A stretch of DNA of 64,000 nucleotides from an uncultured archaeon (GTDB lineage Archaea > Thermoproteota > EX4484-205 > JAAOZP01). Each line of letters starts with the position of its first letter. Positions within the stretch are counted from its first letter, which is position 1. The position numbers and the translations under genes are program-made. Below, one piece after another: positions 969 to 63,684 of this stretch. The stretch is from positions 1 through 64,000 of the forward strand of contig CALIBN010000012.1 of assembly GCA_938045545.1 (NCBI GenBank). The letters run 5' to 3'. The notes below the pieces were generated by a model that saw nothing but the letters and a program-made list of their open reading frames with translations, was not told where the DNA came from and did not search any database.

Positions 969-1140
969 CCCGAAGGCTCTGTGCAAAGGAGACGATGCTG
1001 CTGAGCTTGATGTAAAGACGACATGCACCTTCAAACTAGATTTCAGAGATCCTGGAAGCCCGGAGGTCATTAAACTCATCCCATCATGGCTGTCCCAATG
1101 CCTCACAGTGTAATAAGGCGCGCGCTTAAAAGAATCATGA
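969..1140 (+). repeat. degenerate copy of the 3' part of ORF 4323-4817
   Basis: Aligns by eye with ~4625-4793 (gatgctg..gagcttgatgt.aagacgacatg...ccatcatggctg.cccaatgcctcac...ttaaaagaatcatg) and carries a premature stop. Confidence 0.85.
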
Positions 1141-1399
1141 TTGAAGACATGAAGGGATATTGAAGCCTATATAATCGTAGTAATTAAAGTAGATCTGGAA
1201 ACGGGCTTGTTGAATATAGAGAGAACCAAGGAGGTTTCAAAGGATTGAGTGAGGAGGAATTTTTGGAAAAGTTGAAAGAATATCTGACCAACCGTTATAA
1301 TAGAGAGGAGTTTGTAAAGGAACGAGGAACCTGCTGGTTCAGTATTGAGAGGAACCTTCAGCTAAAAATCTCTTGAGGAAACTAGCTTGAAATGGCGAA

Positions 1400-1859
1400 T
1401 AAGCGGTAATGGAACTTACCCCGAAATAGAAGAGGATTCCGAAATGAACCGCTTAACATCGTCAGTTATCCAAGAAGAAAGACTAACCTGATCAACCCTT
1501 AATGCAGCTACATTAGCCTTTTGGCTAGCACTTCTAATACCGCCATTCCAGACATCATCGAACTCTCAACTAAAAGGCATTATCAAAGACACGATTCCTT
1601 GAGTTTTCAAACTTCTTGACCGCGTTCTCCTTCTTATCTTCAGATTTCTTTGCTCTTAAAACTTCCAGTCTTTCTATCTGGTCTCTCAGCCATTCAACCT
1701 CGGCTTCCAACACAGCTACACGTTCTTTATAAAACCTTAATTGCTCTTCGTATTTAACCCTGTATAAAATACGAAAAAGTCATCATCCACGATAACATCT
1801 TTCGCTATTTCAGAAAATCGATCTAATAACTTGAATGAACTATCACCAGCTAATGACAT
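1400..1859 (-). pseudogene. coiled-coil plus TIR/nucleoside-deoxyribosyltransferase-like domain, frameshifted
   Basis: Joined frames read ...LIMPFS*EFDDVWNGGIRSASQKANVAALRVDQVSLSSWITDDVKRFISES, matching the IMPF..FDDVY..I..A......RADE pattern of defence-associated TIR/NDT-like domains. ATG at 1859; left end approximate. Confidence 0.55.
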
Positions 1860-2115
1860 AAAAATAATAAGCACCGAATATAAAGGTTAAGTCCCTTTGA
1901 GTTAATCCGTGGAGGTTAGCGCGCGTTAGAGAGATATTCAGCCCTGGAAGAGCAGAGCTATGCGGCCTAATAGCTTCAGACAGTACTATTTGTAAATATG
2001 AAAGGACGTATGAAGTTTCTTTAAAAACGAGGATAGTGCACTAGCAAGTTAAAATTGATGGTGTTAGCGCATTATTCTTAAATATTACGTAAGTGGTCTT
2101 ATTTTAGAGGGCATT

Positions 2116-3717
2116 ATGAAAGAGGAGCAACTCTCTGAGGAGGAATTACATGTGCTTGATATAATTACTAATCTGGCACCCTTATCGCAATATGAGCTAT
2201 CTGGATTCTGGATAACAAAGGATCGATCTTTCACACCGGATGCGTTAAAGGAGATTATAGATAAACTCCTACTATTAGGATTAATTTTAGTTGAGAAGGT
2301 CGGATATCAAACGAATATTTCGATGACTACCAATATGAGGGAAAAAGCCGTCCAGATACTAACTGAATTTTGGCAGCATAAGAATGTTAAGGATGAGATG
2401 CTCAGGACTATAGCTGAACAGAATTATGTTGGAGTGCTAAGATTCCTTGAACTAATATCATCGTATGCCGATAAGCCACGTGTTACATTCTCGGATTATT
2501 ACTTTGATTCCGAAGCGCATCATCTTTGCTTAGAGTTGTTAAGCAGTCGCATGGTGTTTAAGCACACATCGTCGAGTAGAAAACACTCTTATGAGGACTA
2601 TTATATCCGCAGGATTCCGATTGATGCGCAAGCATTTTTACAGACTTTTCTCTTGAGCAAACTTAATCCAGAAAGACTAGACCTTGAAAGCGATTGGAAA
2701 GTTTTAATAATTCCTCTATTTTCAGAAAAAAATGTAAAAATTTCAGATATCAGGCTTAACTTTCCAGCTTTGACGCAATATGAGATTGATGAGATTTTAG
2801 CCAGATTGGAGAAGAGGGGGATGATGGTAAAAGAGGGAGAGGAAATAAAGTTTCCTAAGGCCACTAAAGATATTATGAAACAATATTTTGCTGCAAAATG
2901 TTGGAGAGCATTTAAAGCTATGTTAATGCAAGATTTAAGAAGAAGAATAAGTGAAAGAAGCTCTAACTTGTTTTTCTTAGGACTAATAAAGAGATTGCTA
3001 ATTTCCGCGAAAGTTCAAAAACCGTTGGAACTGTTTTTTATTATCAGAAGAGATGAAGTGAAGAATGTTAACGAGGATGATCTTAAAGAAGCTGTTAAGC
3101 TTGGTGTTATTTTCCTAACGGAAAATGAAATTTTAATACCTCATGAAGTCCTTACTGATATAGAAGCTATACTCAGTTCTTCAATTTCAGATAAGGCCAT
3201 CATTAGAATACCTGCAGGTGACATATTTGCAGCGGTTAACAATTGGAGAAAAATCTTCAGTGAATGTAGGGACTATATTAAGATTCAGGACGAATGGGTG
3301 AATGAAGAAACTCTCCAAATAGTCCAGAGTTATTCGCCAATTGAAGTGGAGATCATAATTCTAACTGGTATAGAAAAAGCTAGAGACGTAGATATAGAGG
3401 AAATGAAACAAAGATTAGATGCGATAAGAAATTCGGGGAGAAAGATAGAATTGTTCTTCATTGGCTATGAATCGGGGAAAGCGCCTTTTCATTATAGGTA
3501 TATAATTGGTAAAGATGTTTGCTATTCTATCTCTACATCGATAAAGGATGTGGGAAAGTCTAAAGAAGCCGATTTCATACGCATTTCTAAAGAGGAAAAG
3601 GAGGGCCTTATAGAGCCAGCGTTTGACTACTGGATAGGTCTACCAAGGGAGAGGCTTAAGGAGAAGGGTATCAAGAGAATGAGTTTTGATCAATGGCTAG
3701 CATGTGCGCACTACTAG
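2116..3717 (+). CDS. 533 aa protein with C-terminal PLD-like domain, possibly defence-related
   Basis: C-terminal YIKIQDEWV...FHYRYII...YSISTSIKDVGK resembles the HDRFII..Y..G.S.KD.GK PLD-like motif. Low GC. Possible winged-helix segments upstream. Confidence 0.6.
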   Translation: MKEEQLSEEELHVLDIITNLAPLSQYELSGFWITKDRSFTPDALKEIIDKLLLLGLILVEKVGYQTNISMTTNMREKAVQILTEFWQHKNVKDEMLRTIAEQNYVGVLRFLELISSYADKPRVTFSDYYFDSEAHHLCLELLSSRMVFKHTSSSRKHSYEDYYIRRIPIDAQAFLQTFLLSKLNPERLDLESDWKVLIIPLFSEKNVKISDIRLNFPALTQYEIDEILARLEKRGMMVKEGEEIKFPKATKDIMKQYFAAKCWRAFKAMLMQDLRRRISERSSNLFFLGLIKRLLISAKVQKPLELFFIIRRDEVKNVNEDDLKEAVKLGVIFLTENEILIPHEVLTDIEAILSSSISDKAIIRIPAGDIFAAVNNWRKIFSECRDYIKIQDEWVNEETLQIVQSYSPIEVEIIILTGIEKARDVDIEEMKQRLDAIRNSGRKIELFFIGYESGKAPFHYRYIIGKDVCYSISTSIKDVGKSKEADFIRISKEEKEGLIEPAFDYWIGLPRERLKEKGIKRMSFDQWLACAHY

Positions 3718-3931
3718 GGAGATTTTCATCACCTTCGTTAATAATTCTTCCACAGTTTAGGGTCTTGACAATCGTTCTTATACGATTAAGATGGAAATAA
3801 AGGGCATCGCACGCTTAAAAAGCATGCTCCTGATGGTAACCCTCTTTATGTCATAAATCCTCAAAACATTGTTAGAGTGGTCGATGTTCCTAAAAAGCTG
3901 AAAGCTAAACTACCAGAAACTACTTCTAAAC

Positions 3932-4318
3932 TTGTATAGAGAGCGTGCGAAAGGCTACAAGCGAGTGAGTTTTGAAGTATCCTTAGAGGGGATAGAAGCG
4001 GAATTTTCTTCTGAAGAAGGAACATTGAGGATAATGTATGGAAGACGACCTATATTCATAAAGTTCAAGAACACGAAACATATGTACGAGTTCAAAAAGA
4101 CCCTTTCATACCTCGTTTACGAGATTCAACACCGTCCTAGGGAAGTCGTTCAATATAACATAGTTGTAAAGTTTAGCATAGACAAAGATGGAACGATATC
4201 CGTGCAGTGCCCACATTGCGGCGCCTCAGCCCCGCTACGCATTAAGGAGAGCGAAGTAACCTGTAAGTATTGCGGAAAACAGTATATTATTCCCAAGAAA
4301 CTCTTGGACTTAATCTGA
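3932..4318 (+). CDS. hypothetical protein with C-terminal zinc ribbon (possibly 5'-truncated)
   Basis: CPHCGA...CKYCG. Confidence 0.6.
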   Translation: MYRERAKGYKRVSFEVSLEGIEAEFSSEEGTLRIMYGRRPIFIKFKNTKHMYEFKKTLSYLVYEIQHRPREVVQYNIVVKFSIDKDGTISVQCPHCGASAPLRIKESEVTCKYCGKQYIIPKKLLDLI

Positions 4319-4322
4319 ACAC

Positions 4323-4817
4323 GTGCCAAGCCACATAATGTCAGGAGATTTAGGAATCCAAGGAGATGATGTGACAGATAAATCTGAAGGGAAAGAAGTA
4401 ATTAGGAGACCTCTAAGTAAGCCTAAGGAGTTGAGGATGAACTTGCTGAACTACTTTACTGACAGAAGGAACCTTAAAGACATAGGAGCCGTTAGCCCAT
4501 CGCTTGCTGAAACGTTGGAAAGACTGATAAACTATTTCGAGAGAAAGCGAATGGAAGGATTTGTGAACGTGGCTCTTCACCCAATTGGATACAGTGATTC
4601 ACCGCCGCTGATTTGGAGAATGAATCCTGAAGACAATGTGTGCGAGGAAGATGATGCTGTAGAGCTTGATGTTAAGACGACATGTGCTGTGAGACTGGAT
4701 TTCCGAGACCCCGGAAGCCCTGAGGTCGTTAAACTCGTTCCATCATGGCTGCCCCAATGCCTCACGGAGTATAAGGACGTTAAAAGAATCATGCTCGGAG
4801 GGTATAAACAAGACTGA
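4323..4817 (+). CDS. hypothetical protein
   Basis: 164 aa ORF; a diverged paralogous fragment lies at 969-1140. Confidence 0.6.
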   Translation: MPSHIMSGDLGIQGDDVTDKSEGKEVIRRPLSKPKELRMNLLNYFTDRRNLKDIGAVSPSLAETLERLINYFERKRMEGFVNVALHPIGYSDSPPLIWRMNPEDNVCEEDDAVELDVKTTCAVRLDFRDPGSPEVVKLVPSWLPQCLTEYKDVKRIMLGGYKQD

Positions 4818-5044
4818 GCCTCCTTATCTCAGGTATTTCACAGTAGAATGGCCGCCTAATACCGGTAGCCCTGAGAAGCGTATGCTAATCATAAGGTGTA
4901 CATACTGAGAGACTGCTCGAAATTAAAAAGGGGAGATAGCACTGAAGAGAAGCGCGCGTTATTTTTATATTCTTCTGTTAATCAGGAATATGTCTGGCAA
5001 TTGGCTACGTTAGATTTTTAAGCCTACAGGTCTAAACATTCCCA

Positions 5045-5407
5045 TTATGCTTGGGGAACGGATAAAAACGACCCTGGGGTGGGCTGGGGCTTCTGGGACA
5101 GTAAATGGCTCATTCTTCCTGTCATGTCAGCATAAAAATAGGGCTTTCCAAAGTCCAAATCAACATCCCATTCGGGTTTTGATAATAATCGTTTAATGGA
5201 GTATTTAGAAGCCGAGGTCATCACGCTGAAGGTAAATAAGTCGGTGTAAGCATGTTTATATGAACGTGCGACGATAATCCAATCCTTAGACTCCGTCTCC
5301 TTTTTAGCAAACCAGTCTCTGAATGATAAGAATGATAAAACGTCTAGCGTCTCAGGTTGTTCTTCAAAATCACGTACAACACTCGGGATTCTATTATTTT
5401 GACTCAT
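5045..5407 (-). pseudogene. N-terminal fragment of a hypothetical protein
   Basis: ATG start and protein-like first ~95 residues, then an apparent off-frame tail. Bounded by GCGC motifs at 4952 and 5430. Confidence 0.4.
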
Positions 5408-7530: not shown

Positions 7531-8106
7531 TTACCTAATCAATAATCCCTTCTGAATCAACTCGTTCATGAGTTTCTCAGCGGCATCATAAACCATCTTC
7601 TCGTTAACAGCACCAGTACATACAAGTTTCCCAGAAGCAAATAAAAGTATAACTACATCTGGATCATGCATTCTATATATAAGGCCCGGGAACTGCTCTG
7701 GTTCATACATTGTTCTTTCTAGTGTGGTGACTGCGTGTTCGAGGTCTATTTTTCCGGGTAGTGTTGCTGATGCTACGATGTTTTGTACGGTGATTTGTGG
7801 TTTTGTTTTTCCTATTATTTTTTTGTTTCTGAGTTCTCTTACGATTTTGTGTACTGCTTCGTGTGCTTGTTTTTCGCTTTTTGCTCCTGTTGACACCATT
7901 TTTCCTGAGCTGAAGATTAGTGTTGCGGTTTTTGGTTTTTCTAGTCTGAATACTAGGCCGGGGAATTGGTCTGGTTTGTATTCTACGTTTTCGAAGTTTC
8001 TGACTATCATGTTTAGGTCTATTCTTTGGTCTAGGATTACTGATGCTACTACGTTTTGGATTTCTACTATTGGTTTTTCCTCGGTTTTTTTGGTTTCCTC
8101 GGACAA
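7531..8106 (-). CDS. tbp: TATA-box binding protein
   Basis: Two TBP repeats (NVVAS...YKPDQFPGLVFR...LIFSSGKMVSTGAK and NIVAS...YEPEQFPGLIYR...LLFASGKLVCTGA); TTG start. Confidence 0.98.
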   Translation of the reverse strand: MSEETKKTEEKPIVEIQNVVASVILDQRIDLNMIVRNFENVEYKPDQFPGLVFRLEKPKTATLIFSSGKMVSTGAKSEKQAHEAVHKIVRELRNKKIIGKTKPQITVQNIVASATLPGKIDLEHAVTTLERTMYEPEQFPGLIYRMHDPDVVILLFASGKLVCTGAVNEKMVYDAAEKLMNELIQKGLLIR

Positions 8107-8892: not shown

Positions 8893-9261
8893 AACGATTA
8901 CTGTTTGAAATATCTAGAGTAATTCTAAGCAATATGACGTTTATTACAGCTGTGGCTATGAAGATATGGCTGCTAGAACAACTGTAATGAATGCTTTTCA
9001 ACCATCCGAGTCTAGAAATGTTTTATTAATGCCAACCAAATTATGAAAGGAGTCGAAGTCTCAATCAAACCATGTAGGAAATATCCTAAAGCTACATCTA
9101 GAATATCCTTCCAAGGGCTGTCTCTTCGGTTTTAACTATTCCACAGTAGCGCGCCCTGGATCGTTGTTCTTGGAGTAATTCCGTGAATTCTAGCCAATTT
9201 GGATGTGTACATGTAAAATTTTAAATACTTCCATTAGCTTCTATTTTATTGGTGGAATGGT

Positions 9262-9471
9262 TTGCCGTTGGTTCAGGTTTCTGTTTGGGCTGGCATAAGC
9301 CTAGAAAGTAAACGGAGGATCGTTCAAGGAATTACTAAAGTGTTTGAGGATATAGGGGTCCCCAAAGAAGCTGTAGAAATAATCATCTACGAAGCGCCTA
9401 AAACGAATTGGGCAACAGGCGGACAACTTCATTCAGAATCAGAGAAGCTTGCAAAGACAAAAATACCATAA
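9262..9471 (+). CDS. 4-oxalocrotonate tautomerase family protein
   Basis: N-terminal catalytic Pro, 69 aa, KRRIVQGIT and NWATGG. Confidence 0.9.
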   Translation: MPLVQVSVWAGISLESKRRIVQGITKVFEDIGVPKEAVEIIIYEAPKTNWATGGQLHSESEKLAKTKIP

Positions 9472-9497
9472 CTACGCATAAAAACACGGTGCGCGCT

Positions 9498-9532
9498 ATT
9501 TCTACTATTGGTTTTTCTGCTTCTGCTTGCAT
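9498..9532 (-). pseudogene. orphan 5' fragment of a tbp allele (MQAEAEKPIVE)
   Basis: 20 bp identical to tbp 8060-8079; 34/35 identical to 11199-11233. Confidence 0.8.
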
Positions 9533-9567
9533 TTTGAAATAAGCTTATATACAGCCATTCTGTACAA

Positions 9568-9807
9568 ATGTGTAAACGATGGTTTTCTGAAGCGTTAAGC
9601 ATCAGGATAAGGAGGGATGTTAAGAGGAGGATGAGGGAGTTGAGGGATGTGGATTGGAGGAGGGAGATAGAGGGTTTCATTGAGATGAAGATAAGGGAGA
9701 GGGAGTTGTTGAAGGCTCTCGGTATGATCGATGCGGCCCTCTCCGGGGTTCAGGCCTCGAAGGAGGCTGCTTGGCAGACTGTCAGGGAGTTCAGGGAGAA
9801 GAGGTAG
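9568..9807 (+). CDS. RHH/VapB-type antitoxin
   Basis: SEALSIRIRRDVKRRM...VDWRREI; lies upstream of a PIN gene. Confidence 0.75.
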   Translation: MCKRWFSEALSIRIRRDVKRRMRELRDVDWRREIEGFIEMKIRERELLKALGMIDAALSGVQASKEAAWQTVREFREKR

Positions 9808-10238
9808 GGGTCTTGCAGGTTCTTGATTCGAGCATTTTCGCCAGCATAGTGGTGAAAGACGAGTATTATGATGAGGCTGTTAGTTTTATTAAGAAACACC
9901 TGAGGCGGGAGAATGCTACGCTTGAGCTGGCCTTCATAGAGACTGCTAATGTTTTGTGGAAGCATGTCTCCGTGTTTAAGAGGATGCCTGAAGACAGTTT
10001 TGAAACGTTGAAGAGCAGTATAAAGCCTTTGATGAACAACGCGGCGCAGTTTTACAGCAGCCTGGATGTTTTAGAGGATGCCCTGGATAATTCGGTTAAA
10101 TACGGGTTCTCCGTGTATGCTTCCCTGTATGCTACGCTGGCCTTGAGTTAAAAAATGTAGTTAATGAGCTTCGATGAAAGGCTGAAGAATATGCTTGTTG
10201 AAAGGGGCTTGGAAAGCGTTTTAGCGTCTGACGCGTGA
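9804..10238 (+). pseudogene. VapC PIN toxin, inactivated
   Basis: VLDSS..E..N motif present. The conserved YD is YA. In-frame TAA at 10149-10151 and a nearby TAG precede the LMSFDERL tail. Confidence 0.75.
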
Positions 10239-10465
10239 AAGACACGTTGATGGGCAGCTTCGAATTCAAAACAGTGAAAATAGCCTGTTGGTAAAATCTT
10301 CCTAAATCCTCTTTTTTTCTCCGTAAAAACCCGTATTAATTATTATTTTTGTTACCTAATAAACGGAGAATTTATATCCTCTTTATAAATACCCCGCTTG
10401 AATATTTAAAATATTGGTTTTCTAGACTTTATGGTTTAGGGGTGTTTTATTAGGGTTGAGAGGAA

Positions 10466-10505
10466 TTAGTGCGCACTAAGAAAATTTTTAAACACATGTG
10501 TGCAC
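10466..10505 (+). promoter_or_regulatory. palindromes around the TATA box of vapBC
   Basis: Perfect TTAGTGCGCACTAA at 10466-10479, TTTTTAAA box, then ACACATGTGT and GTGCAC just before ATG 10515. Confidence 0.55.
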
Positions 10506-10514
10506 TTATAAATT

Positions 10515-10730
10515 ATGGTTAAGACTATCACTATAAACGACGAGGCCTACAGGGCTTTGGCCGAGCTTAAGGGAGAGGGTGAGAGCTTTAGCGAGGTTAT
10601 AATCAGGATTCTTAAGGGGAGGAGGGTTAATCTGGGGGATTTCTACGGAGTGTTTCGCGATAATGCGGATCTCTGGCTGAGGATTGAGAGGGAGATTCTG
10701 GAGGGTAGGAGGAGGGCTTCTTTGCGATGA
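10515..10730 (+). CDS. vapB: VapB antitoxin (DUF217-like)
   Basis: KTITINDEAYRALAELKGEGESFSEVIIR. Confidence 0.9.
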   Translation: MVKTITINDEAYRALAELKGEGESFSEVIIRILKGRRVNLGDFYGVFRDNADLWLRIEREILEGRRRASLR

Positions 10731-11134
10731 GGCTGCTGGATACTTCGGCTATAATTAGTGTTCTGAGGGGGGATGCTGAGGCTAAGAGTATTCTGGGGAA
10801 GCCTGCTGAGGAGGGGCTTTGCACGACGACGATAACGCGTTTCGAGCTTTTCTCCAGAATATACCATAGGGGGCTTCTAAGGGAGGGGAGGGTGGTTAGG
10901 AGGCTGGTTAAGGGCCTGGTTCTCTTGCCGTTTGACGAGGAGTCTTCGGAGAAGGCTGCTGAAATCATGGGGTTCTTGCTTAGGGCGGGCAAGGCTGTCA
11001 ACGTTATTGATGTTTTGATCGCCGGCATCGCTGTGGCTAACGGCGTTGAAGAGATAGTGACGAGGGACAGGGATTTCAAGACTATTGAAGATATTTACGG
11101 CCATATGAAAGTAGTTTTGCTTGCTGGAGACTAA
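10727..11134 (+). CDS. vapC: VapC PIN-domain toxin
   Basis: LLDTS, E, DVLIAGIA, TRDRDF; ATGA overlap with the antitoxin. Confidence 0.92.
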   Translation: MRLLDTSAIISVLRGDAEAKSILGKPAEEGLCTTTITRFELFSRIYHRGLLREGRVVRRLVKGLVLLPFDEESSEKAAEIMGFLLRAGKAVNVIDVLIAGIAVANGVEEIVTRDRDFKTIEDIYGHMKVVLLAGD

Positions 11135-11160
11135 TTCTTCTTTGAAGAGAATGCGTACGC

Positions 11161-11233
11161 TATTTTTGGCTAGGATAACTGATGCTACTACGTTTAGGAT
11201 TTCTACTATTGGTTTTTCCGCTTCTGCTTGCAT
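11161..11233 (-). pseudogene. orphan 5' fragment of a tbp allele (MQAEAEKPIVEILNVVASVIL)
   Basis: 11170-11219 matches tbp 8031-8080 at 48/50 nt. Confidence 0.85.
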
Positions 11234-11308
11234 GCCAAGCGCGAATCGAAAGGTTCGTGATCACCGGCACGGGTAAAAATTTATATAAAAGATAAGGGTT
11301 ATTCACAT

Positions 11309-13609
11309 ATGAGAAAAGTAGTCTTATTCTACTTTCTTCTCTTTACTATCGGCTTCACTGGTTGCGTTTTCCTGTATTCTTCTCCAGGGCCTGGTCTCTG
11401 CACGGCCAGCCTCCAGCCAGTGGCGGATACATATGCTGCGCAAAATAATCCGAATGTGAACTACGGGTCTGAAACGTCGCTCATAGTTTCTCCGGGCTTA
11501 AAGGCTGTTTGCAGGACGTTGGTCAGGTTTGACTTGGCGCAAATACCGCCTGGCTCGAAGCTTGCCGGTGCTCAGCTTAAGCTCTACGTGGCCCGAACCG
11601 GGTATGCGGCTGGCAGGGGGACGTATGAATGCTACTTGCTGGATAGGGACTGGGCTGAAAGAACTGTGACTTGGAATAGTCAACCCGGCTCTGTCTCCGG
11701 GTTCGCCGTCTATTCAACAGTCCCAGCTGCCGGCAGCTGGATGACGTGGAACGTTGCATCATCAGTCAGCCAAATCCTAGCGGGAACCAGGTCCAACTTC
11801 GGATGGGGCGTAAGAGACCAGGCTGAGGATATGCGTGCTGAAATTGTTCCTTCAACCGTCTTCCCCTCCAAGGAAAACCCGACTAACAAGCCTATTCTTG
11901 AAATCTCGTTCTACCCGCCTAAGCTGGCAATATCCGGGCCTGCCTCAGGCTTTGTCGAAACATGGGTTAAGCTAACGGTTGAAAGAAGGGATGCTGACAA
12001 CCAGCCAATAACCCGGGGTGATCTCAGGGTTCAGCTTTCGTCCAGCTCAGCCTCAGCAAGGTTTGCGCTGTCTGAAGGAGGCTCGCAGATAACAGAGCTG
12101 ACCATTCCTAACGGGGCTTCGAAGAAAGACTTCTACTATTACGACACTAAGGTTGGTTCAGCCACGATAACCGCTGACACTAACCAGTATAGGGCTGATT
12201 ACTATGAGGAGGGCCGCTTCAGCATCACTCTTGGGGCTAGGGATGTTGAGGGGCCTAAGGTAACCATAAGGGCTATTCCGGAGAAAGTAAAAGACAAGGA
12301 GAGCGTGAGGGTGGTCGTCGATGCCTCGGACCCGAGCGGAATAAAAAAAGTCATGGTCATACAGCGGGGGATCGCGTTGGGCGGAAGCCCATGGGAGCAG
12401 CCCCTATTCATGGAGGCTTACACAGACCCTCTACAGGCAAGCTTCCATAGGGAGGTTGAGTCCGGACCGTTCCCCGGCATGCGGATGGTAGAGTTCGAAG
12501 CTGAGGCAATGGACAAGTATGGAAACATAGGGAGGAGTTCAACGAGCGTCACTATAATTCATCCCCCTCCGAAGAGGACCTGTGGATGCAGGATAAGCTA
12601 TTCGTTGAAAACGAAGGACGTTAAGGTTTGGACCCAGTGGGACTCAATCGCAACCGGCGATGTGGTCGGCGATGGAAGAGACGAGGTTATCGTGGCTCAG
12701 GATGACGAGGGTGGCAGACTGTTTGTCTACACGTGGAACGCTGAGGAAAATGCTCTCGAGCCGATGAAATTCTCGGGCAAAGCATTCACTAAGGTCAGAT
12801 TCACGCATTACGACAGGATGGCGGTTGGTAACGTGATGGGCGACGAGAAGGACGAGATCCTTATCGCAATAGACGAAGATGGAAAAGCGGGAATAATAGA
12901 CATCTACCAGGTTAAGCAGGCTGCTGACGGCTGTGAGCTCACCCTTGTTTCAAGCATAGACTTAGACGCGTTTGGATGTAAATTCACGCATTTCGACGCC
13001 CTCCTCGTGGGCAACGTTTTCAACGACGATAAGCAGGATGAAATAATTCTAGTGAGGGATGATGATGACAAGCTATTCGTCTTCGACCCTACTGCAACAG
13101 GCTCTTTCACCATGCATACTTTTACAGTGCCCGCGGGCTTCGACGAGTTCAGGTATACCGGGGAAACTGATAATGAGAATGATGATGACAACGGTCATGA
13201 TGAGATAGCTGTCGCCAACCTCTTTGGAGACGATGCTGAGGAGATAGTTTATGCGCCCAACCATGAGGATAAGCTGTACGTTTTCTCCTTCAAGCAATCG
13301 GGAGGAGCATGGGTGATGGAAGTGGCGTACAGGCTCCCTGTCGAATTCACGAAATACGATGCCATGAGCGTTGGCGACGTGCTTGGAGACCCTAGGCCTG
13401 AAATACTTTTCTTCAGGGATGATGACAGGGTCGTGCTGATATACGATGTCTTCCTTGGGCCGATAAAGCTTCAATACATCTTCTACTCCAAGTATGACGG
13501 CGTCGCAACCGGGGATGTAGTAGGACTGGGTAAGGGGCAGATACTGGTTGCTACGGACGACGAGAACGATATTCGCCTAGCATACTCGGAGGAACTCTGG
13601 GAGGGTTGA
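11309..13609 (+). CDS. secreted protein: DNRLRE/CBM96-like domain, Ig-like domains, six FG-GAP-like Ca-binding repeats
   Basis: Signal peptide; ADTY...NYG...LVRFDL...VTWNSQP; repeats such as IATGDVVGDGRDEVIVAQDD. Confidence 0.8.
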   Translation: MRKVVLFYFLLFTIGFTGCVFLYSSPGPGLCTASLQPVADTYAAQNNPNVNYGSETSLIVSPGLKAVCRTLVRFDLAQIPPGSKLAGAQLKLYVARTGYAAGRGTYECYLLDRDWAERTVTWNSQPGSVSGFAVYSTVPAAGSWMTWNVASSVSQILAGTRSNFGWGVRDQAEDMRAEIVPSTVFPSKENPTNKPILEISFYPPKLAISGPASGFVETWVKLTVERRDADNQPITRGDLRVQLSSSSASARFALSEGGSQITELTIPNGASKKDFYYYDTKVGSATITADTNQYRADYYEEGRFSITLGARDVEGPKVTIRAIPEKVKDKESVRVVVDASDPSGIKKVMVIQRGIALGGSPWEQPLFMEAYTDPLQASFHREVESGPFPGMRMVEFEAEAMDKYGNIGRSSTSVTIIHPPPKRTCGCRISYSLKTKDVKVWTQWDSIATGDVVGDGRDEVIVAQDDEGGRLFVYTWNAEENALEPMKFSGKAFTKVRFTHYDRMAVGNVMGDEKDEILIAIDEDGKAGIIDIYQVKQAADGCELTLVSSIDLDAFGCKFTHFDALLVGNVFNDDKQDEIILVRDDDDKLFVFDPTATGSFTMHTFTVPAGFDEFRYTGETDNENDDDNGHDEIAVANLFGDDAEEIVYAPNHEDKLYVFSFKQSGGAWVMEVAYRLPVEFTKYDAMSVGDVLGDPRPEILFFRDDDRVVLIYDVFLGPIKLQYIFYSKYDGVATGDVVGLGKGQILVATDDENDIRLAYSEELWEG

Positions 13610-13612
13610 AAA

Positions 13613-15910
13613 ATGGAGAGTAGAAAGATATTCTCAATCATTATCCTGCTGTTGATACTGACTGCAGGCACACCCGGCTCTTCACCGGGACGAATAAGAG
13701 TATTAGGCAGCCCGGCTGGAGGTCCTGATCTGAAGGTTGACAGTGCAGTCTTCTTTCCACAACCCGTCGCCGGGCTAAGAACAAGGATGATTGTAACCGT
13801 AAGCAACAAGGGTAGTCCTGTTAAACAGCTGTTCTGGGTGTCAGTAAAATGGGGCGGATGCCAGCTTGTCAACGGTACGTATGGGCTTGACGGTGGGGCA
13901 ACAGCCAGTATTCTGTTCTATCCCCTGTTTCTACAGGCGGGGAAATACTCGCTTGAAGTGACTGTGGATCCCTACGGGGAGGTTATGGAGACGGATGAAA
14001 CGAATAACGTTCTAGTGCTTTGGCAGGAGGTTATACTTCCTAAAGCCGGGGGCGTGAAAGCTCCTCCTACTGAACTGGATTTTGAAAGCGAGGAAGCAGT
14101 ATGGGGTTATATTGGTAATCTGCCGAGTGGAGAACCATCTATGCATGCACTGCCTGACTACGTTTTAATGGGAAGGCTCGACCCCAATGATCCGAACTCG
14201 CCCTTCGAAGCGCAGGGAGAAACGAGTGCCTGCGGCACCACATCGCTGGCTGGTATACTGAGATACTTGTCCAAGAAGGATTCCAGCGTTTACAATCACA
14301 ATATCATAGATACGTGGGTCAGGGGGGGAGGTGAGATTGATGTATACAGTGAAGGTTTCTCTCTCGCAGACTACGCTAGAGGTAAAGGCTTCGAGGCGAG
14401 AGTATACGTGGATGGAACCTTCGAAGACGTAAAACGGTTTATCGACATGGGGATACCTGTGGAGATGTGTATAACGACTGACGGAAGCCACGATGAGATG
14501 AACGTTCTCAATGGCCACTGGATCGTTGCAGTATGCTACTGGGAGGATATGAACTACGGCACCATGATCGGCTACTATAATCCTTGGGGCCACTTGAGCG
14601 CGATTCCCCAGAGAAGGTTCGAACTATACTGGACAGAGCAAAACCTTCTGGGGATAACGCTGTGGAACAGGTTTTACGTCGCGATATGCAACAAACCAGC
14701 TCCCCCAGATATGCCTCCCAGCAACGCGGGTGCTCTTGAGAAATATCATGGTGCACTCGTAGAGGGTGTCAGCATTTTTTTAAACGAATTAGGCTCAAGC
14801 ATCAGGATGATAAAGTCTGGTGATGCAGGAGAAAAGATAAAGGGCTTAGGGCTCCTAATCGGGACCGTGATTTTTGGCTCCATGCTTCTTATTCCCGTCT
14901 CGCTGACGCTTGTTGCCGAATGGGTTTGGGAAGGAATAAAGGCGGCTGCTGAATTGATTTGGGAAGGGATAAAGGCTTTAGGCTGCAAGCTGTTCGGCTG
15001 GGGTTGCAAGAGTAAGAAAGAGTATTTCTACTATTTCTACTCGTCAAGTCCCTCTTGCGAATGCTCCAGTCTTTTAAACGACATGGTTAGGGTCGAGGCA
15101 GTCGGATACATATTCACCTCCCAGGTTGGAGACGCTGTTCCAGTCTACGAGTATGCTGAGGTGGATGAGCAGACCCGCGAGGTGATAAGATACTTCGTGT
15201 CGACAGACCCTAATTTGCCGGAGACTGGAGCCCCTGGTGTCAGAAGGTTCCTCTACGGGAGGCTCGGTTATCTTAATAAATCTGAGATCCAGGGGGTTCC
15301 AAACGAGAAGCTGGTTGATTATCTTAAAACGTATGGAATTGACTACGACGCATCTGTCTCAAACCTGTGGGTTTCCCAGTACTATCTGGAGGGTTCAAAA
15401 ATACTGTGGATGTTCAATATGACCAGTGAAACGTCTTGGCGCGCTTTCCTCAGCCCAGATGAAGCCGGAGGCACCAAGACTTTTCCGTACGTGGCTGTTG
15501 ACTATAAGGGGGAGAGCAGGGGGTATCACTTCACCAGGGACTACGTTGTCGGCTACGTGCATTACAACCATCTCCGGGGAACGGCGCCTCTCTACAGGTT
15601 TTACGACCCTGATAAGGAAGAGTTCTACCTCACTACTGATTTAAACGATGAGCCGAAGGAGCTCCGCCCTGTTAGGGAAATGGTTTTCTCCGGCGTGGTC
15701 GGGTATGTTTTTCTCGAGCAGAAGCCTGGTACTGTACCGCTTTACAAGTATCATGCTCATGAAAAGGGGGCGCACTACCTTTTCACCACGAAGGAGATTG
15801 AGTCTGACAAGTTCACCCGGCTCGGCGTAATCGGCTACGTGTACGAGTACGAGGAGGATTGCACCGTACCGCTCTGGCTCTTCTGCTTCAGACAGGTGAA
15901 GGAGGAGTGA
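13613..15910 (+). CDS. secreted CARDB plus C39-like cysteine peptidase plus DUF5648-like repeat protein
   Basis: Signal peptide; PDLKV...VDPYGEVMETDETNN; QGETSACG / GHW / YYNPWG catalytic pattern; PLYRFY..FYLTT..GVVGYV repeats. Confidence 0.75.
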   Translation: MESRKIFSIIILLLILTAGTPGSSPGRIRVLGSPAGGPDLKVDSAVFFPQPVAGLRTRMIVTVSNKGSPVKQLFWVSVKWGGCQLVNGTYGLDGGATASILFYPLFLQAGKYSLEVTVDPYGEVMETDETNNVLVLWQEVILPKAGGVKAPPTELDFESEEAVWGYIGNLPSGEPSMHALPDYVLMGRLDPNDPNSPFEAQGETSACGTTSLAGILRYLSKKDSSVYNHNIIDTWVRGGGEIDVYSEGFSLADYARGKGFEARVYVDGTFEDVKRFIDMGIPVEMCITTDGSHDEMNVLNGHWIVAVCYWEDMNYGTMIGYYNPWGHLSAIPQRRFELYWTEQNLLGITLWNRFYVAICNKPAPPDMPPSNAGALEKYHGALVEGVSIFLNELGSSIRMIKSGDAGEKIKGLGLLIGTVIFGSMLLIPVSLTLVAEWVWEGIKAAAELIWEGIKALGCKLFGWGCKSKKEYFYYFYSSSPSCECSSLLNDMVRVEAVGYIFTSQVGDAVPVYEYAEVDEQTREVIRYFVSTDPNLPETGAPGVRRFLYGRLGYLNKSEIQGVPNEKLVDYLKTYGIDYDASVSNLWVSQYYLEGSKILWMFNMTSETSWRAFLSPDEAGGTKTFPYVAVDYKGESRGYHFTRDYVVGYVHYNHLRGTAPLYRFYDPDKEEFYLTTDLNDEPKELRPVREMVFSGVVGYVFLEQKPGTVPLYKYHAHEKGAHYLFTTKEIESDKFTRLGVIGYVYEYEEDCTVPLWLFCFRQVKEE

Positions 15911-15928
15911 TTCCGGAGGCTGGGGAAA

Positions 15929-16369
15929 ATGGTTCGTGAGAAGTTTGCAAAGGGAACACTGGGTTTCGGAATCCTGGTTACGCTTCTATTCATAGTGGTT
16001 TCCAACATGGTGGCGATATTCCTGAGTCTCTACCTGTTGGTCTTAATCATGCCGATCCTAGCGGGGCTCGTAATAGGATTCTACGCGAAGGGGAACAGTT
16101 TGGCCAAGGGGAAAGCTGGCTTCAAGGGGGTTTTCGCCGCCACGCTCATACTACTCCTCTTGTCCGCGCCGGTCATCATAATGGCTTTTTCAGAGATAGT
16201 AGCGTTATGGACCGCCATTCCGTTGATCCTACTAGCGGTTTCTCCAATCGTGATGGGGCTTCTGGGCTTCGTCGGAGGCTTGATGAGCGGGATGTTAATA
16301 AAGCTGGCTAAGCGGCCTAAATACGCGGAGGAGCTTCCACCACCTCCACCTCAGGCTCCATCAACATAG
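15929..16369 (+). CDS. small multi-pass membrane protein with poly-Pro tail
   Basis: About 4 hydrophobic segments; PPPPPQAP end; co-oriented with the two genes upstream. Confidence 0.75.
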   Translation: MVREKFAKGTLGFGILVTLLFIVVSNMVAIFLSLYLLVLIMPILAGLVIGFYAKGNSLAKGKAGFKGVFAATLILLLLSAPVIIMAFSEIVALWTAIPLILLAVSPIVMGLLGFVGGLMSGMLIKLAKRPKYAEELPPPPPQAPST

Positions 16370-16551
16370 CTAACTAAACAATCTGGGGAAACTAGGCTTT
16401 AGAATTAGGGTTTGCGCGCCGGGTTTTACCCTCTTTTCCTAAGTTTTATTGGTTTTCTTCTCTATCGGCTTTTTCTCTAGGTTTTTTAAGCTGATTGCTT
16501 CTATCCTTCATCTTTTTCCGCTTTTCGTTCAGCTTCCGACTTGCAGCTTAG

Positions 16552-17004
16552 TTAAGGTGTTAGCTGGTCTGGCGTTATGATTGTGTCTTTCAAACCCTTC
16601 ACACGTATGAATTCCCTTAGCTCTTTATCTAATGTGAGCAGTTTCAGGTTGAAATGGGCTGAGCTTGCGTAGAGTAGGTTGTCAACCATATCTCTGTGGC
16701 CTAGTGAGTAAAGCCTTAGGGCCTCGTTGAAGACTTGAGGATCCTCCTTGACTTCCCCGTACCTGCCGCTCTCCATGATGCTTCTCAGCCCCGTGTTGAA
16801 AGCATCGTCTACGACTCCGCCTGTTAGCTTGGCTACCACCCAGAGTGCCTCTAATATGCTGAAGCGTGAGTAGAGTGTTTCTACACCAGTTTCCGCAAGC
16901 TTCTTTAAGCCTTCAACAGCCTCTCTTCCAACATCGATCCCGAGGGAGGGGAGTATGAAGGATGTATCAAGCAGGATTCTCAGTCTGTTTTGCCTGCTCC
17001 TCAA
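16552..17004 (-). CDS. vapC: VapC PIN-domain toxin
   Basis: ILLDTS, SILE, DMVDNLLYAS, LTLD. Confidence 0.88.
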   Translation of the reverse strand: MRSRQNRLRILLDTSFILPSLGIDVGREAVEGLKKLAETGVETLYSRFSILEALWVVAKLTGGVVDDAFNTGLRSIMESGRYGEVKEDPQVFNEALRLYSLGHRDMVDNLLYASSAHFNLKLLTLDKELREFIRVKGLKDTIITPDQLTP

Positions 17005-17221
17005 GGCTTATCGCCTCTACTTCCTCAGGCTTTATTGAAACGAATTTCTTCCCGACTGTGGCAAGCTCTATGGGGTCGCGGATTATTTCCAAGATTATGC
17101 TTTCTCCCGAGACTCTGAGCATCACCCTATCACCCTCCTTTATGCCGATGGCCTTTGCGACGGCCTTAGGAAGGTAGATAGCGTATTTTTTTCCGATACG
17201 CGTTTCTACAGTCAGACTCAC
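16967..17221 (-). CDS. AbrB/MazE-type antitoxin
   Basis: RIGKKYAIYLPKAVAKAIGIKEGD. Confidence 0.9.
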   Translation of the reverse strand: MSLTVETRIGKKYAIYLPKAVAKAIGIKEGDRVMLRVSGESIILEIIRDPIELATVGKKFVSIKPEEVEAISLEEQAKQTENPA

Positions 17222-17248
17222 TCGCTTTTCACCAGTTTATTTATTATG

Positions 17249-17277
17249 AATCAGATTTAAAAAGATATCTCTGATTA
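17249..17277 (-). promoter_or_regulatory. inverted repeat spanning the TATA box of abrB-vapC (putative operator)
   Basis: AATCAGA-tttaaaaagatatc-TCTGATT; partly retained in the degenerate copy near 19310-19327. Confidence 0.5.
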
Positions 17278-17439
17278 ATTCTGAAAAATCTGAAAAAAAC
17301 GGGTGTCCTTTAAAGCAGTTTTGGGCGTTTTCTCTAGGTTTTTATGTTTTTCATCGGTTTTGACTTCCTGATAGAATGTATTTTCATGGTTATCATAAAT
17401 GATAACTTTAAATATACGAAAACTGCTGCTTCGATTCTT

Positions 17440-18911: not shown

Positions 18912-18952
18912 TATGAATGCTAATACTGGTTTACTAGGTTTAAACAGGGTTA

Positions 18953-19328: not shown

Positions 19329-19343
19329 CCTATTGTTTTCACC

Positions 19344-19808: not shown

Positions 19809-19978
19809 TAATACCCCCTCTTACGATTAAGAGTTAATCCGGCATATTGCATGTTATTAACATTTTCTTTATTCACCTCTTGGCTTTTTTGTGTTGGAAG
19901 AAGTAGTGCCTGAATGAATCATCAGGATGCTGTTTCAACACGTGTTCCCATCCCTTGGTTTTTCGTTTCTAGTTTAAC

Positions 19979-48919: not shown

Positions 48920-49013
48920 GGGCCCGTGGCCAAGCCAGGATAAAGGCGTCGAGAGGATTGCTCGCGCAGGCCTCCGGAGCCGGAGAACCTGGGTTCAAAT
49001 CCCAGCGGGCCCG
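48920..49013 (+). tRNA. tRNA-Arg(CCG) with an ~18 nt non-canonical intron in the 5' anticodon stem
   Basis: GGGCCCG/CGGGCCC acceptor; CTGGG-TTCAAAT-CCCAG T-arm; removing ~48951-48968 gives TCGGC-CT CCG GA-GCCGG. Confidence 0.88.
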
Positions 49014-49119
49014 CTGCCCCAGGTTTGACGCGTTAAAAGGGTACGAACATGCTCGGGGAAAGTTTGTGTTTTTGTCCTGGAAAAAAGGTTTCCAGACGAT
49101 GCTGGTTAACGGCTTAGCT

Positions 49120-62316: not shown

Positions 62317-62993
62317 ATGAATCCAGAGCTCAGGAAAAGGTTCGTGGATTCCCTTGATTATCTTAGAAAGATGGATTTCTTCAAGGATTACTCCAATTTA
62401 ACATCCGAGGAGATTCTCGAGAAGATCTTTAACGGGTAAATCAATTATGCATATTGGTTGAATGAAAATGAAGGAAAGAGTATAGTAACGTTAGATTCGA
62501 AGCCATACGGATATTATTTAAAGGAATCAATAGAGAAAGATGAAGAGTACAGGATGAAGGAGGGCATTGCTAAAATAGACAATAAAATTTTCGTTTTTGA
62601 TACTAAGAGAGTCATAGTTGAGAAAGTGAGACGATGGTGTATAACGGACTTGGTCAATCCGTCTTAAAAAGATTGGCAAGGATTTCAATAGGGTTTTACA
62701 ACCGCAAACATTAGAGAGGAATGTATAAAGAGTAGAAGAAAAGGAAGAATGCGGAACATATTTAAGGTTTACTTCACTTTTAGAGGGAAAGAGCATTGTA
62801 CGAGATACTTTTAGACGGTGATTACTTTGATAGCCTTGGCATAAGTGAGATAAATAAGCTGATTGAAGATACAGGATACCAATATTATCATATATTTGGT
62901 GAAGACATAGTCATTGTTATGTTGACGGAAAATGAAGTAAATAAATTAGAACGCGAAAGAGGATGGAGGCTGATATTGCCTCAAGGCTCATAG
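62317..62993 (+). pseudogene. disrupted hypothetical gene
   Basis: ATG 62317 is in frame with ORF 62458 across a TAA; coding-like sequence continues via frameshifts to 62993. Confidence 0.5.
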
Positions 62994-63125
62994 TTAGGAT
63001 TCTCAATTATTTTCTTTGGATCTATCACGGGCTCAACTCCACTTGAAAAATTAGATGCAAGAATCTCGTCTAAATCTTTAAGCAGCATGACAATAGGAAT
63101 GCCGTATAGAAGTATTGGGTAAAGA

Positions 63126-63323
63126 ATGGTCGAGTCTTTCCTCGAAAGGATTGAGGTCGATGTGGAGAAGCTGGGTGGAAAACCGGTTATTAAGGGTACC
63201 AGAATCCAGGTGGCCTTAATACTCGAGCTTGTAGCAAACGACATGAAGACTGAGGAAATAGTTAAAGAGTGCCCCGAGCTTCCCCCGAAGGACATTAAGG
63301 CCGCCTTTATGCAGCTAGTCTGA
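63126..63323 (+). CDS. DUF433 antitoxin
   Basis: LGGKPVIKGTRI.V..ILE...EEI. Confidence 0.85.
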   Translation: MVESFLERIEVDVEKLGGKPVIKGTRIQVALILELVANDMKTEEIVKECPELPPKDIKAAFMQLV

Positions 63324-63341
63324 CGGAGAAAGAGATACTGC

Positions 63342-63557
63342 TTGCACTCGAATAACCCTGCTTTCCTTATTGGCGAAAACCTTCCAGTATCGCTTAGAGA
63401 CGCTATTAGGCTTGCGGGATTTACCGCCTACAGGCCTGGCGACATGGGGCTTAAAGGAGCAAAGGATAGCGTCGTGGCCAAGTATGCATTAAATGAAAAG
63501 CTTATCCTAATTACGCTTGATAAGGCGCACGGCGGTAGCGGCGACGCCACCTCCTGA
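63342..63557 (+). pseudogene. DUF5615 PIN-like toxin, truncated
   Basis: FLIGENLP (conserved D is G), GAKD, ILITLDK, then homology stops at GCGCAC 63525. Confidence 0.7.
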
Positions 63558-63684
63558 AGGAACTTTATCAACTCTGACTTGAGCGGAAAGGCATCGTAGA
63601 AATCGCCGGCGCGCGCTTTATAGTTTGTCGGAGAAAGCTATTTATACGATGCTTATGATAAAGACTTAGAGGTGAGGGTGCATT

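Follow-up and report, generated by a model that had tools for sequence, protein, structure and literature searches.

A palindrome of pure G+C, the octamer GCGCGCGC, recurs in gene-free DNA of an uncultured archaeon of the phylum Thermoproteota at places where stretches of DNA have been cut, lost or joined, and points to an undescribed route by which DNA is mended or rearranged. The octamer was followed up from a 64-kb window at the start of contig C12 in a metagenome-assembled genome (MAG), G000 (source bin of 2.03 Mb, 51 contigs, 48% G+C). A sequence-only reading of this window had noticed GCGCGC-like palindromes at cassette junctions and gene truncation points, and had taken them for the site or scar of a system that cuts, captures and stacks cassettes. 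The signal is real, but what it represents is a scar left by joining and no recombination site for cassettes. The explanation put forward here, for which belief and doubt were evenly balanced, is that GCGCGCGC was written in when two DNA ends were joined.

All genomes compared were metagenome bins, and related genomes were not independent of one another; about 0.6 Mb of the relatives' DNA was covered by the comparisons. Genes were called with a rough heuristic of our own based on codon usage, which yielded 1799 genes over 82.6% of 2.03 Mb. Non-coding DNA under these heuristic calls amounted to 357,708 bp and takes in missed small genes and pseudogenes. Enrichment was judged against Markov backgrounds of orders 0–3, shuffles, position shifts and the reversed control word CGCGCGCG.

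Enrichment and Definition of the Octamer

In the non-coding DNA of G000, GCGCGC occurred 161 times, vs. 43.8–56.3 expected under Markov models of orders 0–3. It ranked first among all hexamers by order-3 z-score (13.9) and also by the ratio of non-coding to coding density (7.55), above TATA-like words. The enrichment of intergenic over coding DNA that the sequence-only reading had anticipated was thus confirmed. Coding DNA held 99 occurrences, close to the 91.6 expected (order 3). The accompanying caveat that GCGCGC also lies inside genes was correct for five places in the window (15439, 20230, 29598, 42053 and 57029), and coding occurrences as a whole were at chance level; 20230 and 29598 are kept as coding sequence in the related genomes G006, G008 and G016. 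The tetramer GCGC was mildly depleted across the genome (4043 vs. 4908 expected, order 2). General dinucleotide-repeat slippage was rejected as a cause, because the AT, AC and AG repeat hexamers were not enriched (0.82–1.41 of expectation).

Maximal alternating G/C stretches were counted in the non-coding DNA of G000 and compared with non-coding DNA simulated under an order-3 model. Stretches of eight bases starting with G, i.e., GCGCGCGC, were found 28 times (2.1 expected), and those starting with C four times (1.5 expected). At length six, the G phase was observed 53 times (32 expected) and the C phase 19 times (29 expected). Stretches of length seven numbered 35 (15.6 expected), and one G-phase stretch of length ten was present (0.1 expected). 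No excess of the reversed-phase word CGCGCGCG was found in this DNA. Counted over the whole genome, GCGCGCGC occurred 38 times (4.8–22 expected). Coding DNA held three octamers (1.6 expected), and stretch lengths showed no excess there. The same phase preference was seen in 127 kb of the motif-rich genomes G016, G008 and G002, with 18 G-phase and no C-phase stretches of length eight (0.8 expected for each). An octamer hit by one change would leave 7-mers of either kind but 6-mers in the G phase only, which matches the observed pattern of lengths. The primary motif is the octamer palindrome GCGCGCGC, and shorter words, like those resembling GTGCGC, are consistent with its decay by mutation.

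Flanking sequence was analyzed for 64 distinct octamers drawn from all genomes. The base following the octamer was T on 55% of sides, and the base after that was A on 47%; TA stood directly after the octamer on 36 of 128 sides (28%). The octamer was often flanked by A...T or TA...TA, and beyond position +2 the flank composition was that of the background. No k-mer was enriched in the flanks of GCGCGC-containing runs, and hence no conserved motif lies further out. Palindromy extended at least 2 nt beyond the run in 11 of 126 runs, and flanking inverted repeats had a mean best arm of 4.53, vs. 4.52 in controls. Spacers that hold runs were long, with a median of 501 bp as compared with 108 bp over all spacers.

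Homology Ends at the Octamer

Ends of homologous matches coincided with runs far more often than in controls. In a self-BLAST comparison of G000, 18 of 1322 match ends lay at most 2 bp from a run, whereas displacement of each end by 60–600 bp gave 2.6 ± 1.5 (maximum 6 in 100 trials). In loci of relatives amounting to 86.8 kb, runs coincided with 11 of 313 match ends (2.2 ± 1.4 in the controls). When 127 kb of G016, G008 and G002 were compared with other genomes, 21 ends fell between −2 and +3 relative to the near edge of a run, vs. 1.4 expected; among the 55 runs in this DNA, 15 were abutted by match ends and 10 were spanned. Restriction to perfect octamers gave 10 ends at 38 sites (vs. 0.67) and 15 ends at 28 sites (vs. 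1.96). Overall, the coincidence was 5–15 times that of the shift controls (5–8 times for ends no more than 2 bp from a run), and break-points were thus not placed at random relative to the motif. Decayed octamers were rejected as markers of break-points, since they showed no enrichment at match ends; motif-rich loci had three one-step variants there (vs. 0.52) and two two-step variants (vs. 1.42). Islands of motif-poor relatives (87.9 kb) contained neither GCGCGC nor a substitute palindrome (best z-score 3.1, for GTTAAC).

Protein comparisons were made in windows spanning each of 121 non-coding runs and 968 control places. Matches to paralogues that lacked at least 20 residues stopped within 3 bp of 8 of the runs, vs. 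12 of the control places, and matches traversed 2 runs, vs. 102 control places. The view that homology breaks at the motif therefore held as a statistical excess over shifted positions, with cases at 1925, 18955 and 63610 in the window, and the motif marks joints of the accessory genome, gene truncations included.

Fifteen joints in G000 were inspected base by base. In all 15, the paralogous partner continued with its own sequence and without the motif, thus indicating that the motif was added at the joint. Matches that covered a whole run and stopped at its far edge were not enriched (2 ends vs. about 1.5 expected); modules therefore do not carry the run with them into other contexts. In addition, one MazE/PIN cassette followed through six genomes had runs at variable distances or none at all. 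Modules free of runs and the variable distances around this cassette speak against an attC-like site and against a merely reused hot spot. The proposal that the motif is the site of a cassette-moving recombinase was thus not supported: no run keeps a fixed place beside the MazE/PIN cassette, far-edge ends are at the level of expectation, conserved flanks beyond 2 nt and inverted repeats are absent, and the runs decay (see below).

A related possibility, which we consider rather unlikely, is capture of cassettes or fragments by an integrase that inserts DNA into the octamer and duplicates it, in the manner of Cas1–Cas2 or casposases. Each insertion would then add one octamer, and captured pieces would be octamer-bounded. 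Runs do cluster in islands and in pairs 100–800 bp apart, a 250-bp PIN-gene fragment in G016 has perfect octamers on both sides, octamer counts are high mainly in the 2.0–2.3 Mb genomes of the genus and low in smaller ones, and a palindromic target would suit a symmetric integrase. However, of 24 match-defined fragments in G000 with one end at a run, none had a run or decayed run at its other end; in the rich loci this was so in 4 of 21 cases, three of which were one and the same fragment. Far-edge break-points, which this model expects at the resident flanks, were not enriched, and a clean insertion in G002 (see below) arose where no octamer had been. Moreover, the motif-rich genomes G000, G002, G007 and G012 lack Cas1, whereas the motif-poor G011 and G005 have it, and G016, the richest genome, had no integrase match.

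Insertions, Deletions and Chimeras

A clean insertion was found in G002, which reads AAATA-GCGCGCGC-TAGAC where G008, G000 and G010 have TG-TA, the flanks being collinear. Seven nucleotides were added and a pre-existing G was absorbed, at a position 5 nt before the start codon of an antitoxin gene. A deletion with the motif at its joint is represented by C16:33414–33421, which replaces 164 bp kept in three paralogues. In G016, about 85 first codons of one PIN gene are joined out of frame through GCGCGCGC to about 55 last codons of another, and the two genes fused in this chimera stand in tandem in G000. The same genome retains only the last ~330 bp of a 760-residue gene, and this remnant ends at a run. 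Joints between unrelated fragments occur at C30:33391/33398 and at G006:C115:2692. Three other gap cases rest on permissive alignments of 70–77% identity. With roughly even confidence, the scar is regarded as part of neither piece that it separates and as a mark of clean small insertions, of deletions, and of joints between unrelated or truncated accessory fragments.

Where an end already finished in G or GC, the final tract was still an exact octamer, as at C16:33414, C16:90509 and C12:63609 and in the G002 insertion. This absorption suggests that ends are filled up to a defined sequence, and not that a block of constant size is added. It would not be expected from the footprint of a cut-and-paste transposon with GCGC termini, whose excision would leave GCGC+GCGC and whose imprecise excision would cause deletions. 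Such a footprint, which appears quite unlikely, would account for a palindromic scar of fixed size, for the clean insertion in collinear DNA and for deletions adjoining runs; the T/A flanks are reminiscent of TA-targeting elements and may resemble Tc1/mariner footprints. Unlike the footprint of a TA-targeting element, however, the runs show no two-sided TA excess: TA on both sides was seen in 5 of 126 runs, which equals the product of the single-side rates and is what independent sides would give. A source element is likewise missing, as G000 has no repeat family above ~87% identity and no element ending in GCGC. The DDE_3 and Y1_Tnp families were found in none of five genomes searched, and three motif-rich genomes (G002, G009 and G012) lack TnpB. 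Absence of the transposon is in itself weak evidence, because MAGs often lose insertion sequences in assembly.

A repeated unit of about 4.5 kb in G000 (C24:12733–15850, C24:20447–24967 and C4:776–3503) encodes a TnpB-like protein and a 731-amino-acid HerA/DUF87-type ATPase, and a truncated copy of it begins right at the octamer C24:26186. A Cas1 gene in G016 (C9:60–600) matched the Pfam profile at positions 1–73 and 174–277 only, its internal part being missing; the 10-mer AGCGCGCGCT occupies 591–600, where the profile match ends.

Decay of the Octamer

Comparison of aligned copies suggests that, after insertion, the octamer evolves neutrally and erodes, chiefly through C-to-T and G-to-A changes, to (GC)3 runs and to GTGCGC- and GCACGC-like words. 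Orthologous octamers with lineage-specific substitutions were found in genomes 5–16% apart, and eroding orthologous pairs were ACGCGCGC/GCACGTGC, GCGCAAGC/GCGCGCGC and GCGCGCGC/GCGCGTGC. When all alignments that span a run were pooled, mismatches affected 37 of 232 columns within runs (15.9%), vs. 11.7% of 2280 flank columns. Since mismatch was higher in the runs than in their flanks, no sign of purifying selection was evident. Transition variants of GCGCGC were over-represented in non-coding DNA (886 vs. 562 expected, 1.58-fold), whereas transversion variants were at 0.92-fold; the internal transition variants GTGCGC and GCACGC were enriched about twofold.

This lack of conservation bears on the idea that the octamer is a selected functional signal, e.g., a palindrome resembling HIP1 of cyanobacteria, a protein-binding or methylation site, or an RNA-processing or insulator element between transcription units. 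Its extreme over-representation and intergenic location would agree with such a role, as would the TAA directly after 7 of 28 G000 octamers (in four of these, ATG lies 1–2 nt further on) and the G002 insertion so near a start codon. Yet orthologous copies decay, sister species (G003, G004, G005, G011, G014 and G015) have 0–3 octamers, and the exact coincidence with truncated genes would be left unexplained. Neither an intergenic type (22/30/28/38 observed vs. 19.6/30.1/33.5/34.8 expected) nor a particular distance to genes was favored, and a functional signal is judged very unlikely. A promoter or terminator position was rejected in the same way, as divergent, convergent and tandem spacers were used without preference and gene distance was not fixed.

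Distribution Among Genomes and Search for an Enzyme

Within the genus, copies of GCGCGCGC numbered 339 in G016, 229 in G008, 145 in G002, 63 in G009, 56 in G007, 38 each in G000 and G006, 37 in G010 and 22 in G012. These motif-rich genomes were mostly 2.0–2.3 Mb in size, with the exception of G012 (1.2 Mb, 70% complete). Motif-poor members (0.6–1.8 Mb) had 9 copies (G013), 1–3 copies (G003, G004, G005, G011 and G015) or none (G014 and G001). The reversed word CGCGCGCG was 2.5–5 times rarer than GCGCGCGC in the rich genomes. A survey of 301 genomes from the phylum showed the octamer clearly exceeding its reversed word in this subclade and a few others; outside the subclade, octamer and reversed-word counts were 95 and 34 in G138, 39 and 7 in G105, and 39 and 9 in G085. 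The 10-mer AGCGCGCGCT was present 118 times in G016 (reversed word, 1), 30 times in G138 (0) and 22 times in G105 (0), the latter two genomes belonging to different families. Within 9.5 kb of G138 that were inspected, octamers were located between open reading frames (ORFs), and GCGCGC occurred 7 times, vs. 1.24 in shuffles.

Enzyme families were searched in five genomes (G000, G016, G008, G003 and G014; MAGs of 92–94% completeness). None of these five yielded RVT_1, C5 DNA_methylase (PF00145), Ku, Prim-Pol, Y1_Tnp or DDE_3, and matches to the PolX palm remained below the cut-off of the profile search. Missing families are weak evidence, because all bins are incomplete. N6_N4_Mtase (PF01555) was present in 17 of 17 genus genomes, including motif-poor ones. 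Phage_integrase matches were absent from G016 and numbered five in G000, none of them within the window. N4/N6 methylases, TnpB, integrases and Cas1 were rejected as the responsible enzyme, as their presence does not follow motif richness. Neither candidate offered by the sequence-only reading gained support. A recombinase or transposase acting in trans is not reflected in integrase, TnpB or Cas1 genes that track the motif. As to a methylation-directed process resembling HIP1, a C5 methyltransferase was found in 0 of 5 genomes, and one-step transition variants are enriched rather than depleted.

Runs in the Window

The window contains 16 overlapping GCGCGC matches at 14 places. Among the 17 palindromes originally listed, nine indeed hold GCGCGC (1118, 1919, 4952, 9149, 9491, 16414, 18953, 22567/8 and 63609), whereas eight (3704, 5430, 10471, 11153, 11239, 31542, 34407 and 63525) are merely degenerate purine–pyrimidine words without it. 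The extended strings described as shared between sites are present: GGTTAGCGCGCG at 1914 and 18948, AGCGCGCGTTA at 1918 and 4951, and GGCGCGCGCTT at 1117 and 63608. The gene labels were also right, namely TBP (7531–8106), tautomerase (9262–9471), VapB/PIN (10515–11134), MazE/PIN (16552–17221), AbiEi/AbiEii (17344–18911) and DUF433/DUF5615 (63126–63557).

Perfect octamers occupy 1118–1125 and 63609–63616. The former lies in the spacer after ORF 885–1106; at its place, a permissive alignment to G004 (74% identity, and thus low-identity support only) reads GGATA----TT. The latter is the truncation point of a DUF5615 gene fragment (63342–63557 and on), whose Pfam match covers positions 3–56 of a 110-position profile. 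A match to C22 stops at 63610; from there the partner continues GGC-AGGAGG.

GCGCGCG runs are located at 1919–1925, 4952–4958 and 18953–18959. The run at 1919–1925 abuts an orphan piece, 78–95 bp long, of a LAGLIDADG-type gene. Self-BLAST matches to C11 and C42 begin at 1925/1926, and the partners extend upstream without the motif; a contig of sequencing run X8 matches 1925–2019 only, and there the intact gene continues on either side. The run at 4952–4958, between ORF 4323–4817 and ORF 5045–5407, is not an exact joint, because matches to C8 and G006 stop 74 bp short of it, at 4878. At 18953–18959, the run marks the truncation point of a relic MazE/PIN cassette (18955–19235): the self match to 16864–17158 begins at 18955, and the intact MazE/PIN copy continues without a run. 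Synteny with G006 stops at 18929, 23 bp ahead of this run.

The remaining GCGCGC sites are 9149–9154, 108 bp upstream of the tautomerase gene; 9491–9496, 20 bp downstream of it; and 16414–16419, after gene 15929–16369. Relatives' matches to the module that follows the tautomerase gene start at 9534–9584. The word at 16414–16419 is identical in G006, and the cassette at 16486–17323, missing from G006, begins 66 bp beyond it. As separate observations on this region, G006, which lacks the MazE/PIN cassette (16486–17323), has 2.5 kb of extra DNA after 18929, and the AbiEi/AbiEii cassette (17324–18929) is 97% identical between the two genomes, as compared with ~90% for adjoining core DNA.

Decayed octamers complete the set. 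GTGCGCAC at 10469–10476 (in G010, GCGCGTGC) forms the left edge of the vapBC cassette (10515–11134), where matches to G010, G022 and G008 start at 10481/10482. GCGTACGC at 11153–11160, a likely decayed octamer, separates this cassette from an orphan N-terminal TBP fragment (11160–11219) that matches 8019–8080; matches to G010 and G022 end at 11151/11152, after which G010 differs and lacks GCGTACGC. Both words thus sit at real homology ends. In a core spacer at 22566–22573, ACGCGCGC is an octamer with one change and its G006 orthologue is GCACGTGC, both being transition derivatives of GCGCGCGC. GCGCAAGC at 31611–31618 lies at the edge of a variable island (31.4–34.6 kb) and reads GCGCGCGC in G006 and G008; G016 loses synteny at this place and has no run there.

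In the likely source sequencing run, positions 1–7.3 kb of the window had a depth of ~9 (Logan contigs 1–13), about a quarter of the rest, and positions 9330–20000 were contained in one 24.5-kb Logan contig of depth 34. The low-depth part may represent an island or subpopulation of a minority of cells, or a mis-join of strains in the bin contig; the genome-wide statistics do not depend on it. This difference in depth, and the origin of all genomes from metagenome bins, are what an explanation by chance, composition or assembly artefact could draw upon. Against that explanation stand four kinds of control (Markov models, shuffles, shifts and the reversed word) and orthologous octamers that bear lineage-specific substitutions in genomes 5–16% apart, and it is regarded as extremely improbable.

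Other Features of the Window

The only complete TBP gene of the assembly lies at 7531–8106 on the minus strand, and its last 155 bp (7532–7686) are repeated elsewhere as orphan direct repeats. These repeats are 77–89% identical and spaced 0.9–4.9 kb apart. Seven were found on the 16.8-kb contig G003:C26 (336–16758), three to four on G000:C8 (6921–9655) and several on contigs of G004, G010 and G011. They look as if site-specific integration had struck the 3′ end of tbp time after time, by analogy with the use of tRNA genes by integrative elements. They are a repeat system apart from GCGCGCGC and occur in motif-poor genomes too. No integrase was found in G003.

The variable island is filled by a decayed copy of a three-gene module (31729–34275, minus strand) that encodes a TGT-like protein, a LAGLIDADG_3 protein and a protein of no family. 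At least five copies with 65–76% DNA identity were found, including intact ones in G000 at C40:10058–12404, C11:31066–33741, C42:45193–47819 and C18:36338–39143; positions 1925–2019 of the window are a fragment. The proteins comprise a Cys-rich one of ~340–370 amino acids with a weak match, below the cut-off, to TGT (queuine tRNA-ribosyltransferase; E 7.7e-4), one of ~305 amino acids matching LAGLIDADG_3 (E 6.6e-19), and one of ~225 amino acids without a family match. The module may be a selfish or DNA-modifying element.

At 48920–49014, ARAGORN predicted a tRNA-Asn of 95 nt with anticodon ATT. Both length and anticodon are unusual, and the gene may hold an intron. Near-identical copies (97–102 bp) of this region are present on C17 (97.9%) and C18 (92.2%).

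Discussion

How a fixed palindrome could be written into a joint is addressed here by a tentative proposal for tailing and annealing. A double-strand break would be followed by extension of each 3′ end until it ended in the palindrome. Any of the numerous copies already in the genome could serve as the template, in the manner of synthesis-dependent microhomology-mediated end joining (MMEJ); alternatively, a dedicated end-completing enzyme would be responsible. A G or GC already at the broken end would be counted into the octamer. The two palindrome-tailed ends would then anneal and be sealed. Since such a tail is self-complementary and consists of G+C only, any two ends could form a stable duplex at high temperature. 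If tails were copied from scars already present, the scar would promote its own spread, which would fit its explosive, lineage-specific numbers. The proposed end completion is consistent with the types of event, with the absorption of microhomology, with a constant length and phase, with the later neutrality and with the runaway counts in some lineages.

Several results weigh against a scar made at joining. The split into coding and non-coding DNA depends on heuristic gene calls, and no responsible enzyme was found. A single clean insertion passed strict criteria; a second candidate (G016 L013:5464) failed in a multiple alignment and was rejected. Joints are inexact at C17:124098, which has (GC)5, and at C8:4468, C27:1998 and C30:33391, which have 6- or 7-mers; some indel edges lie 20–25 bp away from a run, and a 590-bp deletion in G006 is without any run. 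One- and two-transition variants of the octamer outside (GC)3 runs were not enriched at G000 match ends (0 vs. 0.96 and 4 vs. 4.57, respectively). No fresh event was caught: G006 is 93–96% identical to the window across 20–40 kb, and all seven runs compared between G000 and G006 are common to both, so none is very recent. Finally, a 67-bp deletion in G000 (C43:29907) starts 3 bp from a run already present in both G000 and G006.

This last case suits a hot spot or fragile site better than a filler. A pre-existing fragile site, at which GCGCGCGC is cut by a GCGC- or GCGCGC-specific restriction-like nuclease, adopts non-B DNA or stalls replication, would also agree with the strict phase of the octamer (G at the start, C at the end), which resembles restriction sites, with the mild GCGC depletion and with the presence of N4/N6 methyltransferase genes. 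As a general explanation it is nonetheless unlikely. The partners at the 15 joints lack a run at the break-point, far-edge ends are at null level, and the origin and multiplication of the tracts, like the 7-nt insertion at a site-free place in G002, would find no explanation. Furthermore, PF01555 is as common in motif-poor as in motif-rich members of the genus (17 of 17), and no C5 methylase occurs in the five genomes searched. Restriction-site-mediated recombination differs from the present case in the same respect, since the pieces joined at the 15 joints and in the G002 insertion had no site beforehand.

A scar made at joining was also compared with known systems. The closest named likeness to GCGCGCGC is HIP1 (GCGATCGC), the cyanobacterial octamer known as the highly iterated palindrome. 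HIP1 is reported as 15- to 300-fold over-represented, conserved by selection and of unexplained origin, and has been discussed as an insertion site of very small mobile repeats and also as a recombination site (PMC5861425); one proposal traces it to a mutational ratchet linked to methylation (Elhai 2015, as cited in PMC5861425). Like HIP1, GCGCGCGC is an 8-bp GCG-NN-CGC palindrome that is hugely over-represented in some lineages only. Unlike HIP1, which is genome-wide and conserved, it is confined to non-coding DNA, stands at joints and decays.

In its behavior, GCGCGCGC is nearest to the filler or templated insertions at end-joining junctions. Filler insertions, including the N and P nucleotides of non-homologous end joining, place bases foreign to either partner at repair joints, together with deletions and microhomology. 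GCGCGCGC is likewise foreign to both flanks and exactly at joints, and is accompanied by deletions and microhomology. To our knowledge, fillers vary in sequence, being copied from nearby DNA or random, and none has one fixed sequence; GCGCGCGC, in contrast, is one defined palindrome genome-wide. Insertions of the filler or templated kind are associated with synthesis-dependent MMEJ (PMC2943611). The case differs from Ku/LigD non-homologous end joining in that Ku and Prim-Pol were each found in 0 of 5 genomes and PolX was below the cut-off.

As in integron cassette arrays, the motif is found between small accessory genes, mostly toxin–antitoxin genes, whose order varies among relatives. An attC site, however, travels with its cassette and is an imperfect inverted repeat of 50–150 bp used by IntI, whereas the present motif measures 8–12 bp, is armless, is not carried by the cassette and is tracked by no integrase. 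With repetitive extragenic palindromes (REPs) and bacterial interspersed mosaic elements (RAYT-associated) and with miniature inverted-repeat transposable elements (MITEs), it shares the character of a short intergenic palindromic repeat of high copy number. REPs are conserved hairpin units of 20–40 nt, and MITEs are bordered by terminal inverted repeats and duplicated target sequence; around GCGCGCGC, in contrast, nothing is conserved beyond 10–12 bp, and Y1_Tnp was found in 0 of 5 genomes. The GC clusters of yeast mitochondria are linked to recombination and to deletion end-points, measure tens of bases and form sequence families, whereas GCGCGCGC is a single octamer of archaeal chromosomes. 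Like GCGCGCGC, these clusters are short, G+C-rich palindromic insertions in A+T-rich spacers; they are polymorphic among strains (PMC4478555). A literature search, with supplements and subscription journals outside its reach, yielded no description of GCGCGC or GCGCGCGC at archaeal junctions.

Double-strand-break mending and the illegitimate uptake of foreign DNA are poorly known in archaea that lack Ku. A defined joint scar would give a mechanistic clue, in that a palindromic G+C tail could act as a universal sticky end for thermophiles, and would represent an archaeal counterpart to cyanobacterial HIP1 with a different behavior. It would also serve to count and date insertions, deletions and truncations in uncultured archaea from sequence; in annotation, GCGCGCGC flags pseudogene ends and chimeric genes in these genomes. 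The range of 0–339 copies among close species makes the genus a target for phylogenetic profiling toward the enzyme. It is conceivable, though doubtful at present, that several lineages of Thermoproteota (this genus and families f15 and f28) join ends by an undescribed route in which each broken end is finished with (A)GCGCGCGC(T). If so, every illegitimate joint would carry a countable scar, providing a record of insertions, deletions and gene capture, and end joining in these archaea may depend on a dedicated end-completing enzyme.

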